NCBI GenBank assembly: GCA_041661275.1
Contig: JBAZUU010000005.1
Span: 72 to 64,071 of the forward strand
Direction of reading: 5' to 3'
Length of the DNA: 64,000 bases
From: Parcubacteria group bacterium
GTDB lineage: Bacteria; Patescibacteriota; Minisyncoccia; Moranbacterales; UBA2206
The first letter of the stretch is position 1; each line of letters begins with the position of its first letter. The notes beneath the pieces are model-generated. The model had not been told where the DNA came from. It searched no databases and worked only from the letters and a program-made list of their open reading frames with translations. The translations under genes and the position numbers were made by a program. Shown piece after piece: positions 45,238 through 61,400 of this stretch.

Positions 45238-46395
45238 ATGGCTCTCAATAAAGCAAAAATCAAAAACGAAATAGACGTGAAATTCATCCCACTTTCCGAG
45301 GCCGCAAAAAGGTCCGGATATACTCCTGAACACCTGAACCTTTCCGCCCGGAAAGGAAAATTGCAGGCGCAAAAGATCGGGCGCAACTGGTACACAACCG
45401 AAGAATGGTTGTGTACCTTTTTAGAGTTGGCGCTTGGGAGGAGCGGAGAGGAGAAGGTTGGCGCGAGCGAGGAAATTGGAGAAGGCGTTGAGACTGACGA
45501 GACTCTGTCGAACCTTGAGTCACTTAGGTCGCTTAGGATTCTTACGAGGTCAGAATTTCCATTCGAAAATTCCGATGAGAAGAAAAGCAGCAACGACGAG
45601 AAGGAAGTTTTTAGAGACGCTTTGCTGGAAGTGGCGGGAGAAAAAAAATCAGAAAAAATCTTTTCCAAAAACTTGGTGCAAATGCTGGCTGGTGTTTCAT
45701 TGGTTGTAATTTTTATCCCGATAATTTTCTTTTCAGTTTATTCGGTGAAATATTACGCGGCGCAAAAAAATAACCAAGCGGAAAAAATCGCCCTCGTCAA
45801 TGAAACGCCGTCAGAAGTCATCGTGAACGAAAATGGAAATAATTTAACATCCGAAAATCCGGAAGAAAAAGTTTTGGGAATTGTCGCGGGCGAAACTACT
45901 GCTGCTGACACAGAAGCTCAAAAAAAATCAGGAGTGGTTCTGGCATCGGAAAATTTCAAAGCGCAAAATGTCAGTATGGGAGTGGGAATAGTTTTAGCTT
46001 CCGCCGAAGAAAATGCGCCGCTTGAAATAACGGATGTAAAATCGGAATCGTTCATCACCGGCAAAAAAAATAATGCTAACTCGCAAGAAGAAGTTAAGCT
46101 GGTGGTTTCCTGGAAGACGAACAAGCTCGCTATGTCGGAACTGGATTTTTCCAAAAACAACGGACAGGATCCAAAAGTGCTGAAAGAAAATTCTTTCGGA
46201 TTTAACCATGCCGTAGTTCTGACCGGGATCGATCCGCGGACGTCGTATGTCTATCAGGTGAAAGGCAAAGACCATTGGGGCGCGGAAGTCAGTTCGGATT
46301 TCTATGGGCTGTTCACCGCGTCGAAACCGGTTTCTGTTTTTGATTTGATTTCTAATCAGATAAATGAAATTTTCGGTTGGGCGATCAAGAAGTGA
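45238..46395 (+). CDS. Membrane-anchored protein with N-terminal HTH_17/excisionase-like motif and C-terminal FN3-like domain
   Basis: IPLSEAAKRSGYTPEHLNLSARKGKLQAQKIGRNWYTTEEW, TM segment LVQMLAGVSLVVIFIPIIFFSVYSV, C-terminal TSYVYQVKGKDHWG. Contains an in-frame CTTAGG repeat at 45514-45547. Confidence 0.6.
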   Translation: MALNKAKIKNEIDVKFIPLSEAAKRSGYTPEHLNLSARKGKLQAQKIGRNWYTTEEWLCTFLELALGRSGEEKVGASEEIGEGVETDETLSNLESLRSLRILTRSEFPFENSDEKKSSNDEKEVFRDALLEVAGEKKSEKIFSKNLVQMLAGVSLVVIFIPIIFFSVYSVKYYAAQKNNQAEKIALVNETPSEVIVNENGNNLTSENPEEKVLGIVAGETTAADTEAQKKSGVVLASENFKAQNVSMGVGIVLASAEENAPLEITDVKSESFITGKKNNANSQEEVKLVVSWKTNKLAMSELDFSKNNGQDPKVLKENSFGFNHAVVLTGIDPRTSYVYQVKGKDHWGAEVSSDFYGLFTASKPVSVFDLISNQINEIFGWAIKK

Positions 46396-46425
46396 GTTTC
46401 TTGCGTCGCTTAGGAAGCTTACGAG
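46394..46425. repeat. CTTAGG-motif element
   Basis: gagtttcttgcgtcgcttaggaagcttacgag. Confidence 0.5.
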
Positions 46426-46440
46426 TCCGCCTAAAATGTT

Positions 46441-46510
46441 CCCTCTCCTGTCAGCCTAAATTTTTAAGAAAAAATTTGGCTGACATCCTCTCCCGGAGGG
46501 AGAGGAGGAA
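46441..46510. repeat. RPE-like palindromic element copy D
   Basis: CCCTCTCCTGTCAGCCtaaatttttaagaaaaaatttGGCTGACATCCTCTCCCggagGGAGAGGAGG. 20 nt before the giant gene. Confidence 0.7.
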
Positions 46511-46530
46511 AATGAAAATGACAAATTAAA

Positions 46531-57796: not shown

Positions 57797-57885
57797 TATC
57801 CGATTTATGGCTTGATTGATGGGAATATCGGATGAGGGGTAAGGATGTTGATAGATACTAATGGATATTTTTTGATACTATCAAT

Positions 57886-58275
57886 ATGGAAACAAAAAAA
57901 TATATAAAAGTTCAAGATCTGGAATTATATAAACTAGCCAGAGAGCTTTCGATGATCGCCTGGGATACTTATGAAAAATTAAGCTGGCAAGACAAGAAAA
58001 TTATGGGCGACCAGTTTGTTAGAGCTACGGATTCTTTCGGGGCTAATATTGTTGAGGGATACAATCGGTACCATTTTCTTGATAAAATCAAGTTTTTATA
58101 CATATCACGAGCTTCACTGGCCGAGGCAAATGACTATTGGATCGAATTGCTACTTGAAAGAAAGAAGATTACCGCTGAAAAGTACAAAGAATATAAAGAA
58201 ACTTCAAATAAAGCATCAATAAAGCTGCAAAATTTTATATCTTCGATTTATCGGGCGAAGAGAGATACTTGTTGA
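57886..58275 (+). CDS. Four-helix-bundle protein (TIGR02436 family, paralogue)
   Basis: VRATDSFGANIVEGYNR...ISRASLAEANDYWIELL. Confidence 0.8.
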   Translation: METKKYIKVQDLELYKLARELSMIAWDTYEKLSWQDKKIMGDQFVRATDSFGANIVEGYNRYHFLDKIKFLYISRASLAEANDYWIELLLERKKITAEKYKEYKETSNKASIKLQNFISSIYRAKRDTC

Positions 58276-58470
58276 TATTAGTAGATACTGGTGGATACTT
58301 ATCGATATTTATTGATACTGGCCAGGCCGGTATTTTTTAATATCTACTAGTATCAATAAATATCATCCCTTGTGGATAACTATTCGTTTGACAGCTAAAA
58401 AAATGGTATAATATTTATAGTTAAAATGAACGATGTATGTCTTAGATAAAACAAATGTCGGATATCGCTA

Positions 58471-61400
58471 ATGGGGGCAACGGAAACAATGGTTGAAACA
58501 AAAAACGAAAACAAAAAAAGAGAAACCAAGGCCTATATTTCTCTTCACGAAGCATCGGAACTTTTCGGGTACACTCCCGGCTATTTTGGCATCCTTTGCC
58601 GCCAGGGAAAATTGAAAGGAAAAAAGATCGGACGCAACTGGGTGACCAAAAGAGAGTGGGTGAAAAAATTTGCCAAAGAAAATGTGACCAACGGTAAGGG
58701 TGGCGGATTGAATTTTTGGGACGCGGACGCCCAATCAAAATACGTGGGGGCGATGAAAGAGAAGTTGGAAAACGCCAAGGGCGACAGTAAGATTTTTTTG
58801 GTGCGTTCGATCAGAACCGCCAAAAATTTTGTCCTGGGGATTTCCACCCGGCTCAATCTGATTGAAAGAAAAATCATCGCCAAAGAAAAAGCCAACGAGG
58901 AAAATGAAGGCGACAATTCTTTCTCGGCTCTCGAAGGAAAATCTCTGTCGTTTTTCGTGAGTCTCATCTTTCTTCTTTTTGTTTGCGCCTCGCCATACTT
59001 TTCCAAAATAAATTTCGGGGGAGAAAAAAATAGCCAACCGGAAATTCTGGGAGTGGAAACTTTGAGTCCGGAAAATTCCAATAATGAAAATGGAACCGCT
59101 TCCGGATTTGGATCGGAAACCGGAAAAAATTTGGCGCAAAAATATTCTACCGGCGTTCAGGAAAATGTGACCATCGATGAAATTCTTTTGGCTCTCAAAA
59201 TTAAAAAAGACGGCAATGATAATTTGGCGGGTGATTTGAAAATAAAAAGAAACGGAAAATTTAGAATCGCCGCTGGAGCCATCAATTCTCGAAAAATAGA
59301 GGATCATTCTATTACCGGAAAAGATATTAAAAAAAATGCCGAATTGGAAATAAAAGAACTGACTACCAGCGAAGATATTATTGTCGGTGGAAATTTGTCG
59401 GTGTCCGGCACGCAGATCAGTTCCGGTCTCATGACTTTTCAAAACGGCCTGACGGTTACGTCGGGCAATGTTTTGTTTTCCACCAACGGCACGATAACGC
59501 AAACGGGAAACGGGCAGGTGACGCTTGGCGGCAATCTTTCCGCGCCGACAGGATCAATCACTACGCTTTCCGCGACAACGATAAACAACGTTACAACAGC
59601 CACCATTGCTACCGCCAACATTACCACTGTTAATCTGGGAACCAACACCATCACCGACGGCAATCTCACTGGTTCCTGGAATTTTAATTCGGGAAATCTG
59701 ACCGGTGTTGGAACGATCGCGGCCGGAGCGACTACTCTCTCTGGCAATTTGGATATGCAAAATTATCTGATCGTGAATATCGGCAACGCTAACACCGATT
59801 TTCGCGCGGACGGCGGGTTGACTCTGGCCGGTTCGATTTTGCCGTTCACTGACGTGTCCATAAATCTCGGCGACGGGACGCATCGTTTCAATAATATCTA
59901 TGTGGCCAATATCAACACCTCCGGCATGAGTACTTCCGGACAAGCCATCTTCACCTATGAACCGATCTCGACCGCTTTCGCTCAATCAGCCGTTCTTATC
60001 AATCCGACCAACGCCATCGCCAATGCGCCGCTTTTGGGAGTTGGCGTCGGCGGCGCGCAGAGATTTTTGGTGGACGAAGATGGCGATGTGACAGCGGCGG
60101 GGAATGTGACAATAAGCGGCGCCGGCAATAATTATTTCGCGGGCAACGTTGGCATCGGGACGACGAATCCTTTGCAAAAGTTGCATGTAGAAGGGCATTG
60201 CATCACCGGTGATGCCCGGCTTTCTGTTTGGAACCCGGAAACGAAACAAATGGGGACGATACGGTTTGACGCGGTCAAAGGCGGAGAATACGCCATGTCT
60301 CTCGACGAAAAAACCGGAAAACTCGTTCCGGCTAAAATCAAGGGACTTTTGGATATGGGAGTGAAGCCGATTTTCAAAATCACAACTGTTGATGGGCGAA
60401 TGATACGGACAACTGGAAATCATCCTTATTTAGTAAAAGAAAGCAAAAAATCCGCAATAAATGCGGATTCCTTGGCGAGCACCAACCTGGTGCGAAGCTC
60501 GGACTTGTCATTCCTATACGGTAATACTAACAGAAACGAAAAATATGTCAAGTCGCTGTCGCTGTCGCAAATTGTGGATAACCACGAGGGTCGTGGAGGT
60601 GAGGGGAATCGAACCCCCGGACTCTGGAATGACAAGTCCGAGTCCGCACCAAGCCACCCCCATGACTCAAATATTATACCACAAAATACTGTTTGGACAA
60701 AGGTAGCGGAGCTTTCAGAAGAAGATGAAATAGCGGTAGCTGATGATGACTTGACGAAAATAAAATTCGTTCGCATCGCTCGCATTGAAATTCTTCCTTC
60801 CGAGCAGGTTTGGGACATCGAAGTCGAAGGCACTCACAACTTCGTCGCTAACGGCATTATCGCCCACAATACCTATATTAATGGAAATTTAGGAATCGGC
60901 ACGACCAATCCCGGCGCCTCTCTAGATGTTTTTGGAGGATCGATCAAAACTACCAATCAATTCATCACCACTCTTTCCACCGGCACCGCTCCCTTTGCGG
61001 TTTCTTCAACTACACTAGTGACAAATCTCAATGCTGATTTATTTGACAGCTACCATGCCGGAAACGCCAGCGGCAATGTTCCCGTTTCCAACGGTACGGT
61101 TAACACTGACCTGAACGCTGATTTGCTCGACGGACAACACGGCAACTATTATCTGACAGCGGCCAATATTAGCGGAACGCAAAATTATATTTCCAAATTC
61201 GGCGTTTCCGGAAACACTCTGGGAAATTCTCTTATATATGATACCGGAACATACGTCGGCATCGGCTCCACCGGCCCAACGGCACGACTCCAAGTGGTGG
61301 GAATTGATTCTCTTGACACGTCTTTCGCCGCCAATATAGGTGGAGCAACGGGTACAGGACTCATCGTAACAAATCAAGGCAACGTCGGCATCGGGACGAC

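Follow-up and report, generated by a model that had tools for sequence, protein, structure and literature searches.

The two open reading frames singled out in the preliminary description, ORF 45238 and ORF 58471, are both present as described in the window (the whole 64-kb stretch of DNA analysed), and the peptides quoted from them match exactly. The genes concerned and the parts of their products are as follows:

45238..46395, + strand: ORF 45238, a 385-aa bitopic protein made up of a winged helix-turn-helix (wHTH), linker, transmembrane (TM) helix, FN3 domain and C-terminal helix
45283..45450, + strand: cytoplasmic wHTH of ORF 45238 (aa 16-71)
45673..45747, + strand: TM helix of ORF 45238 (hydrophobic core aa 146-170)
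46009..46317, + strand: extracellular FN3-type beta-sandwich of ORF 45238 (aa 258-360)
46336..46389, + strand: conserved C-terminal amphipathic helix of ORF 45238 (VSVFDLI...FGWAIKK)
46441..46493, + strand: palindromic repeat copy inside the 135-nt spacer between ORF 45238 and ORF 46531
46531..51039, + strand: ORF 46531, a 1502-aa secreted, tail-fibre-like protein with its own signal peptide
58471..64000, + strand: ORF 58471, a giant fibre that continues past the window end (2648 aa on public contig L144)
58534..58698, + strand: cytoplasmic wHTH of ORF 58471 (aa 22-76; HTH_17 profile 16.8 bits, E 0.0085)
58945..59001, + strand: TM helix of ORF 58471 (aa 159-177)

The ORF 45238 product is identical in sequence to P0001, a hypothetical protein of a Parcubacteria-group MAG. 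Its wHTH has the layout beta-alpha-alpha-beta-beta-alpha, with the recognition helix TPEHLNLSAR and the basic wing KIGRNW, and is followed by an acidic linker (aa 72-145) that is disordered in the model. The FN3 region is matched by Pfam Pur_ac_phosph_N at 25.8 bits, under the cut-off of 30, and residues F379 and W381 of the C-terminal helix are invariant across the family. In ORF 58471, the wHTH, linker and TM helix lead into a GIGTT-repeat shaft with two inteins. The earlier wording of two large extracellular proteins therefore suits the giant ORF 58471 and not ORF 45238, of which about 215 aa with one FN3 domain lie outside.

The shared N-terminal root module

The common N-terminal segment of about 45 aa proves to be a homologous domain, since BLASTP pairs aa 16-61 of ORF 45238 with aa 22-67 of ORF 58471 (48% identity over 46 aa, E 5e-15), the alignment extending weakly through the TM region. 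Comparison of the two N-termini by tblastn gives the same 46 aa and 48% identity at E ~1e-12, with no third copy of the domain in the 64-kb window (next best E 0.33). The proposed resemblance to HTH_17/excisionase proteins holds at the family level and by fold but is weak for the window copies themselves, as the HTH_17 profile scores ORF 58471 below its cut-off of 27, finds no match in the ORF 45238 N-terminus, and neither copy alone reaches a Pfam or NCBIfam threshold. Across the family, 19 of 24 domain copies match PF12728 (HTH_17) at E <= 1 (best 6.3e-6), and the TIGR01764 cut-off of 28.8 bits is exceeded by the relatives P0121 (34.3) and P0122 (40.1). The AF2 model of the domain has a pLDDT of 92.4 and the same beta-alpha-alpha-beta-beta-alpha order, and its best Foldseek matches are HiNmlR (MerR family), Pukovnik Xis, RacA, TraN, RdfS and BldC, with rmsd of 1.3-2.8 A and TM-scores of 0.70-0.79 for the top matches, at E-values of just 0.03-0.3, a consequence of the small size of the domain. 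The matches also include CbpM and DafA, protein binders with a MerR-like fold. Sequence and model together place the shared segment among the true winged helices of the HTH_17/excisionase superfamily. The low Pfam scores that the two window copies obtain are the sole argument for chance similarity or for a long, cleaved signal peptide, a reading whose probability is next to nil: chance is ruled out by the pairwise E-value, thousands of homologues and the confident fold, and the first hydrophobic segment begins only at aa 146 in ORF 45238 or aa 159 in ORF 58471. Among the most conserved positions in 380 domain copies are [ST]17, E19, [YH]20, [NS]22, R26, K34, G36, R37, N38 and W39, which include the recognition helix and the wing, and the domain as a whole carries a mean net charge of +3.7, against +5.3 for the stretch from helix 2 to the wing.

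The TM helix does not follow the domain directly, as had been stated, because a linker of about 75-90 residues intervenes in both proteins. The topology survey places the domain at the N-terminus of bitopic proteins, and no signal peptide is found on the N-termini of ORF 45238 and ORF 58471. Of 136 relatives, 134 have the domain beginning no later than aa 30 and none has a TM helix ahead of it, and a TM helix follows in 84 of the 93 relatives having at least 150 downstream residues (median gap 62 aa); the full-length model of ORF 45238 has the same order of parts. Both proteins are N-in/C-out single-pass membrane proteins with a common "root" module, which consists of one cytoplasmic excisionase/MerR-type (HTH_17, TIGR01764) wHTH, the 75-90-residue linker and one TM helix. 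With one to three tandem domain copies and the TM helix, this module stands at the N-terminus of at least 2,100 protein clusters, those that are named being Patescibacteria nearly throughout, and is essentially missing from 2.9 million viral contigs. Surface proteins of the Patescibacteria, which are ultra-small bacteria, commonly carry this root of one to three tandem copies at their N-terminus.

ORF 45238 and the secreted fibre ORF 46531

In ORF 46531, the conserved N-domain spans aa 44-260 and is accompanied by GIGTT repeats and a Peptidase_S74 chaperone domain. ORF 46531 itself, and relatives of ORF 58471, resemble phage tail fibres and endosialidases in their GIGTT-type shaft repeats and S74 C-terminal chaperone domain; in contrast to these, the genes here are cellular, and the products are anchored by a TM helix or a partner protein and not by a virion. 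The repeat element noted between ORF 45238 and ORF 46531 is real and palindromic, with four copies in the window, and the suggested comparison with other genomes reveals both fused and separate arrangements. For example, P0127 and P0251 carry an HTH-TM joined straight to an ORF 46531-type fibre N-domain (50% and 42% identity, respectively). The existence of such fusions, together with the repeat in the spacer, would suit a recent split in which insertion of the palindromic repeat broke a fused HTH-TM-fibre gene into ORF 45238 and ORF 46531. This is very improbable, and the idea that the two are halves of a split gene is contradicted on several counts. More than 120 clusters make up the conserved, stand-alone family to which ORF 45238 belongs at full length; this protein has an FN3 domain of its own and ends in a C-terminus that does not vary. 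ORF 46531 bears its own signal peptide, and pairs of the same type in other genomes have spacers of 22-61 nt without the repeat element. The fused proteins, moreover, have no FN3 part; their existence and make-up point to ORF 45238 as a distinct protein that serves the ORF 46531 fibre as its membrane base. Genes of the ORF 45238 family always lie upstream of an ORF 46531-type secreted fibre gene, and ORF 45238 would grip a separately secreted fibre that elsewhere is fused to the HTH-TM.

DNA motifs upstream of domain-encoding genes

Two kinds of motif, GATA-core repeats and DnaA boxes, accompany the promoters of these genes, and the DnaA box is also present at type IV pilus genes of the window:

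45067..45105, + strand: operator-like 20-bp direct repeat on the upstream side of the ORF 45238 promoter
45151..45159, + strand: perfect DnaA-box 9-mer TGTGGATAA, 37 nt upstream of the ORF 45238 -10 element
45197..45202, + strand: TATAAT -10 hexamer of the ORF 45238 promoter
58264..58319, + strand: GATAYT array of six units with an exact 10-bp period on the upstream side of the ORF 58471 promoter
58371..58381, + strand: DnaA-box 11-mer TGTGGATAACT, 25 nt upstream of the ORF 58471 -10 element
58407..58412, + strand: TATAAT -10 hexamer of the ORF 58471 promoter (extended -10, TGgTATAAT)
21731..21741, + strand: DnaA-box 11-mer TGTGGATAACT preceding pilM of the type IV pilus operon; an extended -10, TGgTATAAT, lies downstream of the box
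31326..31336, - strand: DnaA-box 11-mer TGTGGATAACT in reverse orientation, about 155 nt upstream of the type IV pilin gene 31490, after which pilD comes next

The second unit of the 20-bp repeat contains the palindrome ATATTTGATATCAAAT, with a 12-mer core at 45090-45101, and the array upstream of ORF 58471 is the densest GATAY window within the 64 kb. The 239 kb of loci contain 20 copies of the palindrome TTTGATATCAAA, where about 0.07 copies are expected by chance from our own composition estimate, and 13 of 16 ORF 45238-family loci have it; it lies 1 nt from the ATG start codon in six loci and 4 nt before a GTG in a seventh. GATATC is 11-fold enriched upstream of domain-encoding genes compared with other intergenic DNA. 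The GATA-core repeats at these genes co-vary with the recognition-helix class. The GYTPE[YH]LN helix (class A) goes with TTGATA-type sites (7.05 per kb vs 1.24 in controls, in loci that are orthologues, so that the motif counts are not independent), and the YSQEYLS helix (class B) goes with CGGATA/CGATAT-type sites (8.0 per kb vs 0.89 in controls, in a sample of six loci only). Neither class is enriched for the motif of the other (p = 1e-3 and 8e-5), and neither how many repeats there are nor how they are arranged follows the count of HTH domains in tandem. The predicted sites are the palindrome TTTGATATCAAA for the GYTPE[YH]LN class, including ORF 45238, the 10-bp-phased GATAYT array for the ORF 58471 wHTH, and ATCGGATA/CCGATAT for the YSQEYLS class.

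The DnaA box behaves differently. A perfect box (TGTGGATAA) lies within about 415 nt upstream of 22 of 28 domain-encoding genes, all 17 exact copies in 22 loci (239 kb) fall inside the upstream windows of such genes, and orthologous loci keep the block box - N - TTGTTGACA - N13-14 - TGgTATAAT. This confinement, and the near-invariance of both domain and box, could mean that the wHTH itself recognises TGTGGATAACT, either competing with DnaA or tethering the box loci (its own promoters, the pilus promoters and perhaps oriC) to the membrane. We consider this decidedly unlikely, because TGTGGATAACT, which is also the sequence of E. coli oriC box R4, is the universal DnaA box and was also found beside dnaA, rnpA and rpmH in unrelated bacteria, because the box stays constant while the recognition-helix class changes and is single regardless of HTH copy number, and because it also marks the promoters of pilus genes, in which the domain is not encoded. 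The box is common to root-module genes and the window's type IV pilus promoters, and would be read by a different, invariant factor, most simply DnaA.

Possible functions of the root module

The preliminary description left open a membrane-tethered regulator or a repurposed fold; the first option gains positive support from the co-variation, seen in sequence, of operator-like repeats with helix class, and the second is kept as a rival. The root may be a membrane-tethered, sequence-specific DNA-binding module that autoregulates or tethers its own locus, a reading whose chances we put at about even and of which no description was found in the literature. The wHTH would then be a working sequence-specific DNA-binding domain kept at the membrane, and binding to the GATA-core repeats beside its own gene would autoregulate that gene and/or hold the locus at the membrane. 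ToxR, CadC and TcpP likewise keep a DNA-binding winged helix in the cytoplasm at their N-terminus, cross the membrane with a single TM helix and have a domain outside, and follow a membrane-bound one-component logic in which the DNA site has to reach the membrane. However, their winged helix is of the OmpR/PhoB type with a small periplasmic sensor, whereas the root module is of the excisionase/MerR type, often in two or three tandem copies, with an FN3 domain or giant fibre outside. Excisionases, BldC, TraN and pSK1 Par share the fold and sequence superfamily of the wHTH, and their head-to-tail binding on direct repeats, or internal two-domain tandem, resembles the tandem domains and 10-bp-phased repeats found here. 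In contrast, they are small soluble proteins of phages, plasmids and developmental circuits, and we know of none that is membrane-anchored or fused to surface structures. Against a regulator, fibres of thousands of residues, probably structural, are unusual transcription factor candidates, and near-identical recognition helices would bring paralogues into competition for shared sites. Lying at the ribosome-binding position, the palindrome could also act at the RNA level or bind an unlinked regulator.

The net positive charge and basic wing would equally suit a generic anchor that grips DNA whatever its sequence (the nucleoid), or else some other abundant anionic surface, with a mechanical or positional role in rooting load-bearing attachment fibres, like the RacA or Noc tethers, and with the repeats belonging to other regulators. 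Avidity would rise with tandem copies, and a near-invariant domain on many unrelated ectodomains and on same-genome paralogues fits a common anchor better than many regulators. RacA, the B. subtilis chromosome anchor that appears among the structural matches, similarly tethers DNA at an envelope site through a MerR-like winged helix, but is soluble, contacts the membrane via DivIVA and binds GC-rich inverted repeats. Such an anchor is unlikely, as backbone binding needs no invariant polar recognition-helix residues (E19, Y/H20, N/S22) and the class-matched repeats beside the genes are left unexplained.

As CbpM and DafA illustrate, the same fold can serve protein binding, and a repurposed wHTH might no longer bind DNA but dock a conserved cytoplasmic partner, for instance a DnaJ-type chaperone, a cytoskeletal protein, or the platform or ATPase of a pilus; CbpM binds CbpA. 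RodZ, a bitopic protein with an N-terminal cytoplasmic HTH, a TM helix and an outside domain, is a precedent for an HTH as the cytoplasmic docking module of an envelope protein, although its HTH is of the XRE type and binds MreB and its outside domain is DUF4115, such domains being absent here. Extreme conservation of surface residues would fit a single invariant partner, and type IV pilus genes are both close to these genes and marked in common with them. We regard a docking role as unlikely, since the excisionase-type basic wing KxGRNW is kept, the recognition-helix classes follow nearby DNA motifs, and no conserved partner gene was seen beside domain-encoding genes in the neighbourhoods inspected.

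Given a DNA-binding-type root with matching repeats, surface fibres may be wired straight to the chromosome, and the DnaA box, if bound by DnaA, would mark a surface-appendage regulon.

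Fold, topology and distribution of the N-terminal domain

Two proteins of the window, ORF 45238 (385 aa) and the giant fibre protein ORF 58471, begin with the related N-terminal peptides quoted in the preliminary description, and both ORFs and both peptides are present in the sequence. The two N-termini are 48% identical over 46 residues (pairwise E-value 5e-15) and represent the only copies of the domain in the window. The likeness of this segment to the HTH_17/excisionase type, which had been proposed earlier, is borne out by family-level profile matches and by fold, but not by the window copies alone, which remain under the profile cut-offs: the N-terminus of ORF 58471 scores 16.8 bits against HTH_17 (PF12728; cut-off 27), and that of ORF 45238 gives no match to this profile. 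Two relatives in the same alignment exceed the TIGR01764 cut-off of 28.8 (P0121, 34.3; P0122, 40.1), PF12728 is precomputed on the homologous proteins P0016, P0017, P0019, and P0020, and PF12728 is matched at E <= 1 by 19 of the 24 domain copies in the domain alignment (A2), the lowest E-value being 6.3e-6. With the window copies below threshold and these relatives above it, membership in HTH_17/TIGR01764 rests on transitive homology. The 79-aa N-terminus is too short for word-indexed homology search, and homologues were obtained with the full-length protein and by exhaustive profile search; ORF 45238 has >120 full-length homologous clusters. Annotations already attached to proteins with the module are generic ("hypothetical," "FN3 domain-containing," and "helix-turn-helix domain-containing"). 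Designed ankyrin repeats, the sole return of a PDB sequence-profile search, were rejected as a chance match of GxTPLHL to GYTPEYL.

AF2 applied to the domain alignment gives a beta-alpha-alpha-beta-beta-alpha winged helix with a pLDDT of 92.4 (E5-7, H8-15, H19-27, E34-36, E39-43, and H44-54). The best PDB matches in Foldseek (TM-score 0.70-0.79) are a DNA-bound MerR-family protein, mycobacteriophage Xis, RacA, TraN, RdfS, BldC, and CbpM, and on this model the fold groups with the winged helices of the excisionase, BldC, TraN, and RacA type. The elements that follow the domain are arranged alike in both proteins:

aa 16-71 of ORF 45238, aa 22-76 of ORF 58471: winged helix-turn-helix (wHTH)
the 75-90 residues that follow the wHTH in both ORFs: charged linker
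aa 146-170 of ORF 45238, aa 159-177 of ORF 58471: single TM helix, after the linker

Neither protein has a hydrophobic segment at its N-terminus, and the TM helix is the first such segment in each, so that neither has the layout of a cleaved Sec signal peptide; ORF 46531, the 1502-aa secreted fibre protein encoded downstream of ORF 45238, and ORF 52942, by contrast, carry N-terminal signal-type segments. One TM helix does lie downstream of the wHTH, as had been described, but the linker separates the two, so that the anchor is not immediately adjacent; this linker is disordered in the model and net acidic in ORF 45238, and charged but roughly neutral in ORF 58471. On the outer side of the membrane, ORF 45238 is first disordered, then has an FN3 sandwich, and ends in an amphipathic helix that is conserved; ORF 58471 has a GIGTT-repeat shaft interrupted by inteins. 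Both proteins thus have an N-in/C-out single-pass architecture with a common root module of wHTH, linker, and TM helix.

This module is widespread. When 1.84 billion representative proteins were searched exhaustively with the domain profile, 8,175 matched at E <= 1e-3 and 2,104 at E <= 1e-10, many of them with two to three tandem domain copies; the longest reach 6,890 aa. Among 136 new top matches, over which topology was counted, the domain starts by residue 30 in 134, is preceded by a TM helix in none, and, in the 93 proteins that extend far enough downstream, is followed by one in 84, at a median gap of 62 aa; 22 of the 136 are longer than 1,000 aa, most of these having fibre repeats. Where a source is named, it is Parcubacteria, Moranbacteria, Portnoybacteria, Paceibacterota, or "Patescibacteria group," except for two MAGs with a Bdellovibrionales label and a few described simply as "bacterium." Two genomes with an ORF 45238-family gene (L009 and L013) bear the title "uncultured Bdellovibrionales"; the labels may be wrong, or else the family extends past Patescibacteria. 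A phage origin of the module was dismissed, since the viral collection yielded only two marginal 20-aa matches and the module is essentially absent from viral contigs.

Several known families share parts of this design. MerR-family regulators continue after the wHTH with a coiled-coil helix for dimerisation and a region that binds the effector, whereas the root module has a disordered linker and a TM helix; no MerR C-terminal region was found after the root wHTH, and Pfam MerR_1 and MerR_2 matches are marginal (3/24 and 1/24 copies, best E 0.084 and 0.049). ToxR-like activators have the same layout of an N-in cytoplasmic DNA-binding domain, a single TM helix, and an outside domain, as judged here from hydropathy scans and models, but their DNA-binding domain is of the OmpR/PhoB type (Trans_reg_C), for which root-domain proteins give no Pfam match, and the root domain is of the HTH_17 type. 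RodZ combines an XRE-type HTH (HTH_25) with an outside DUF4115, neither of which is found here by Pfam; HTH_3 is matched marginally in one of the 24 copies. The root-module proteins therefore resemble ToxR/CadC-type membrane-bound regulators and RodZ in topology and logic, but lack the domains by which the MerR, ToxR, and RodZ families are defined. No description of this HTH-TM-fibre architecture was found in the literature.

The partner fibre gene and the surface-protein island

The window derives from a Patescibacteria (Parcubacteria-group) metagenome-assembled genome. A hypothetical protein already deposited, encoded on contigs as long as 262 kb, has the same sequence as ORF 45238. The gene order of the window runs from a type IV pilus cluster through ligA, gatA, and gyrB to a surface-protein island comprising ORF 45238, the fibre ORF 46531, small selfish-looking genes, a secreted beta-helix protein (ORF 52942), and ORF 58471. 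Features of this setting, and positions on further contigs (L-numbers; L144 is the public contig that carries ORF 58471 in full), are as follows:

19736-19788, 20324-20376, 21640-21691, 46441-46493: palindromic repeat, four copies, all intergenic
20868-21614 (minus strand); L019 1995-2732; L147 1386-2120: double-zinc-ribbon phosphoribosyltransferase gene
about 21.9-34.6 kb: type IV pilus cluster (pilM, pilO, pilB, pilT, pilC, pilins, pilD)
30246-31388, 51136-52383, 52499-52903, 56784-57167, 57886-58275: small genes, probably mobile or selfish, interspersed with those for pilus and fibre
ORF 46531 aa 1198-1252: Peptidase_S74 chaperone domain (PF13884; 52.6 bits, cut-off 22)
52942-56724: 1260-aa secreted right-handed beta-helix protein with three internal ~400-aa repeats
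60199-60870 and 63427 to window end; L144 10586-20390: inteins of ORF 58471, with the genes that follow it
L019 3254-3466; L148 1883-2092: small soluble MerR-type gene (69-70 aa), divergent from giant HTH-TM fibre genes

It had been suggested that ORF 45238 and ORF 46531 are halves of a split gene, but this does not hold. By its conservation across 29 diverse members, with 27 invariant columns in the wHTH, the FN3, and a C-terminal FGWA motif, ORF 45238 belongs to a stand-alone family, and the pair is kept elsewhere: on three other contigs, two of which are copies of one locus, an ORF 45238-type gene is followed after 22-61 nt by a gene that matches ORF 46531 in signal peptide and N-domain, with gyrB just ahead of the first gene in one case. 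Fused arrangements do occur in two other proteins: in P0127 and P0251, HTH-TM is joined directly to an ORF 46531-type N-domain (50% and 42% identity over about 230 aa), and the FN3 segment is absent from both. By gene-fusion logic, these proteins indicate that ORF 45238 is the separate membrane base of a secreted fibre and not a broken gene. The palindromic repeat described between the two genes was confirmed as one of the four window copies; it lies in the 135-nt spacer, which folds at -42 kcal/mol (z = -3.7). The repeat reads CCCTCTCCTGTCAGCC...GGCTGACATCCTCTCC and is followed by a GGAGAGG hairpin in the two copies inspected; a different repeat in the same style occurs upstream of pilM in L019.

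The small genes encode two AAA_14/DUF4143 ATPases, a PDDEXK_3 nuclease, and two 23S_rRNA_IVP four-helix proteins, and these families are again found beside fibre genes in L018, L022, and L144. Each repeat of ORF 52942 opens with YYSVGQNT and closes with WDIGADE. The two inteins of ORF 58471 share an insertion motif in the shaft (GIGTTNPLQKLHVxGH/C...AHN/TYI), and the second has a zinc-ribbon and nuclease-like insert, inside which the ORF ends at 2648 aa; a 156-aa gene follows, and then an ORF starting with an intein C-terminal half, more shaft, and Peptidase_S74, so that the second intein is either naturally split (trans-splicing) or marks a disrupted gene. The phosphoribosyltransferase gene, presumably ComF-like from our reading of its domains, lies divergently ahead of pilM in the window, and in L019 and L147 it precedes giant HTH-TM fibre genes; with pilM following the giant gene in L019, the fibre genes therefore hold a pilus-cluster position. 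The small MerR-type gene of L019 and L148, which is separated from the giant HTH-TM gene by a DnaA box, was rejected as a soluble paralogue because it does not match the root-domain profile.

DnaA boxes and GATA-core repeats upstream of the root-module genes

The DnaA-box 9-mer TTATCCACA / TGTGGATAA has five exact copies in the window (45151, 58371, 21731, 31328, and 60573) against 0.53 expected. A perfect TGTGGATAA lies just upstream of an extended -10 promoter in both ORF 45238 and ORF 58471, two further copies lie in the promoter regions of pilM, which also has an extended -10, and of a pilin gene, and the fifth is intragenic. Upstream elements in the window are:

21731-21741: DnaA box with conserved flanks, TGTGGATAACT, pilM operon
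31326-31336: the same, pilin gene
45067-45105: operator-like GATA-core repeat, a 20-bp repeat with TTTGATATCAAA at 45090
45151-45159: DnaA box, ORF 45238
58264-58319: GATAYT x6 array with an exact 10-bp period, ahead of ORF 58471
58371-58381: DnaA box, ORF 58471

Of 28 domain-encoding genes from many genomes and several families, 22 have an exact box no more than about 415 nt upstream, and this is usually the sole exact copy in its locus (L004-L008, L010-L020, L023, and L147-L149). Over 239 kb of sequence from 22 loci, each of the 17 exact boxes is inside a 350-nt upstream window, and these windows account for 3.2% of that sequence; the flanks are conserved as well, and pilM in L019 has a variant box, TGTGTATAA. 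An oriC reading of the window boxes was rejected, since the sites are single, cumulative GC skew rises monotonically without inversion, and there is no dnaA gene; neither dnaA nor oriC was found in the Patescibacteria sequence examined. Promoters of these genes have TTGACA 13-14 nt from the extended -10. A metagenome scan for the box with TTGACA, N16-18, and TATAAT, a spacing that differs from theirs, gave at least 120 matches; those listed come from ordinary bacteria and phages, none of them encoding the root domain, and several adjoin dnaA, rnpA, or rpmH in unrelated bacteria, which confirms the 11-mer as a canonical DnaA box.

Given its place ahead of domain-encoding genes, the box could be recognised directly by the wHTH itself. 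It is, however, unchanged between the two recognition-helix classes, GYTPE[YH]LN (class A, including ORF 45238) and YSQEYLSLRARQGKL (class B), and an invariant box would best be assigned to an invariant factor, most simply DnaA. With DnaA as the factor, the root-module genes and the pilus genes of the window would fall into one appendage regulon, and the pattern suggests a DnaA-box-marked surface-appendage regulon in Patescibacteria; literature searches returned no account of DnaA boxes ahead of pilus or fibre genes in Patescibacteria.

A second element does vary with the helix. The 12-mer palindrome TTTGATATCAAA occurs 20 times in the 22 loci (239 kb), with about 0.07 expected by chance from our own composition estimate, and is present in 13 of the 16 ORF 45238-family loci. 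It abuts the ATG start codon in six loci and lies 4 nt before GTG in a seventh, with a second copy often 250-520 nt upstream; at the ATG of several orthologues (L004-L017), it occupies the position of the ribosome-binding site. The palindrome ATATTTGATATCAAATAT, the 58264-58319 array, and the ATCGGATA repeats are candidate targets of the wHTH. Giant tandem-HTH genes have ATCGGATA/CCGATATATCGG repeats in place of TTTGATATCAAA. TTGATA-type sites upstream of class A genes number 7.05 per kb, compared with 1.24 in other intergenic DNA of the same loci, the class A loci being orthologues and therefore not independent; CGGATA/CGATAT-type sites upstream of class B genes number 8.0 compared with 0.89 per kb, and neither class is enriched for the motif of the other (p = 1.3e-3 and 8e-5). 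The GATA repeats may resemble Fur boxes (GATAAT). Within the wHTH coding region of ORF 45238, a 12-bp perfect hairpin with a T-run (45389-45417; 60-nt segment, -27.7 kcal/mol) was rejected as an attenuator, since it is absent from 16 orthologues, which fold at -4.6 to -17.3 kcal/mol.

Possible roles of the root module

In 380 domain copies, conservation is among the highest at positions of the recognition helix and of the basic wing, and a charge of about +5 falls between helix 2 and the wing. With the class-matched repeats near the genes, these features indirectly support binding of double-stranded DNA by the wHTH, which would act as a membrane-tethered, sequence-specific binder and have as its operator the GATA-core repeat next to the gene that encodes it. 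Fibre proteins this large are probably structural, however, and would be odd transcription factors, and the arrangement of the repeats does not follow HTH copy number. A non-specific nucleoid anchor is one rival, which would leave the match between helix class and repeat unexplained; a protein-binding adaptor is another, as in RodZ, which has a similar topology, or in CbpM, which has a similar fold. If the wHTH is a sequence-specific DNA binder, the fibres might be coupled mechanically and informationally to the chromosome, which we regard as an improbable proposal: the tethered DNA-binding domain of each fibre or fibre base would hold its own and the pilus loci at the fibre root, or would be released by intramembrane proteolysis on pull or engagement, as a Notch-like contact sensor, and in either way would retune an attachment regulon on which DnaA boxes, and through them the replication cycle, also act. 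Were this true, chromosome coupling would be a previously unknown link between host contact, surface assembly, and the cell cycle in an episymbiont.

Much of bacterial diversity belongs to the Patescibacteria (CPR), which live attached to other cells; to our knowledge, almost nothing is known of how their giant surface proteins are anchored and controlled. One N-terminal root module, whose cytoplasmic part is a domain of DNA-binding type, is found in at least about 2,100 protein clusters at the stricter threshold and in 8,175 at the looser one. Its genes carry candidate operators that vary with the recognition helix, and a perfect DnaA box common to them and, in the window, to type IV pilus promoters points to a possible regulon. 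If confirmed, the root-module proteins would constitute a new class of membrane-tethered regulators or anchors and would provide an annotation handle for surface-fibre genes and their promoters in CPR genomes.
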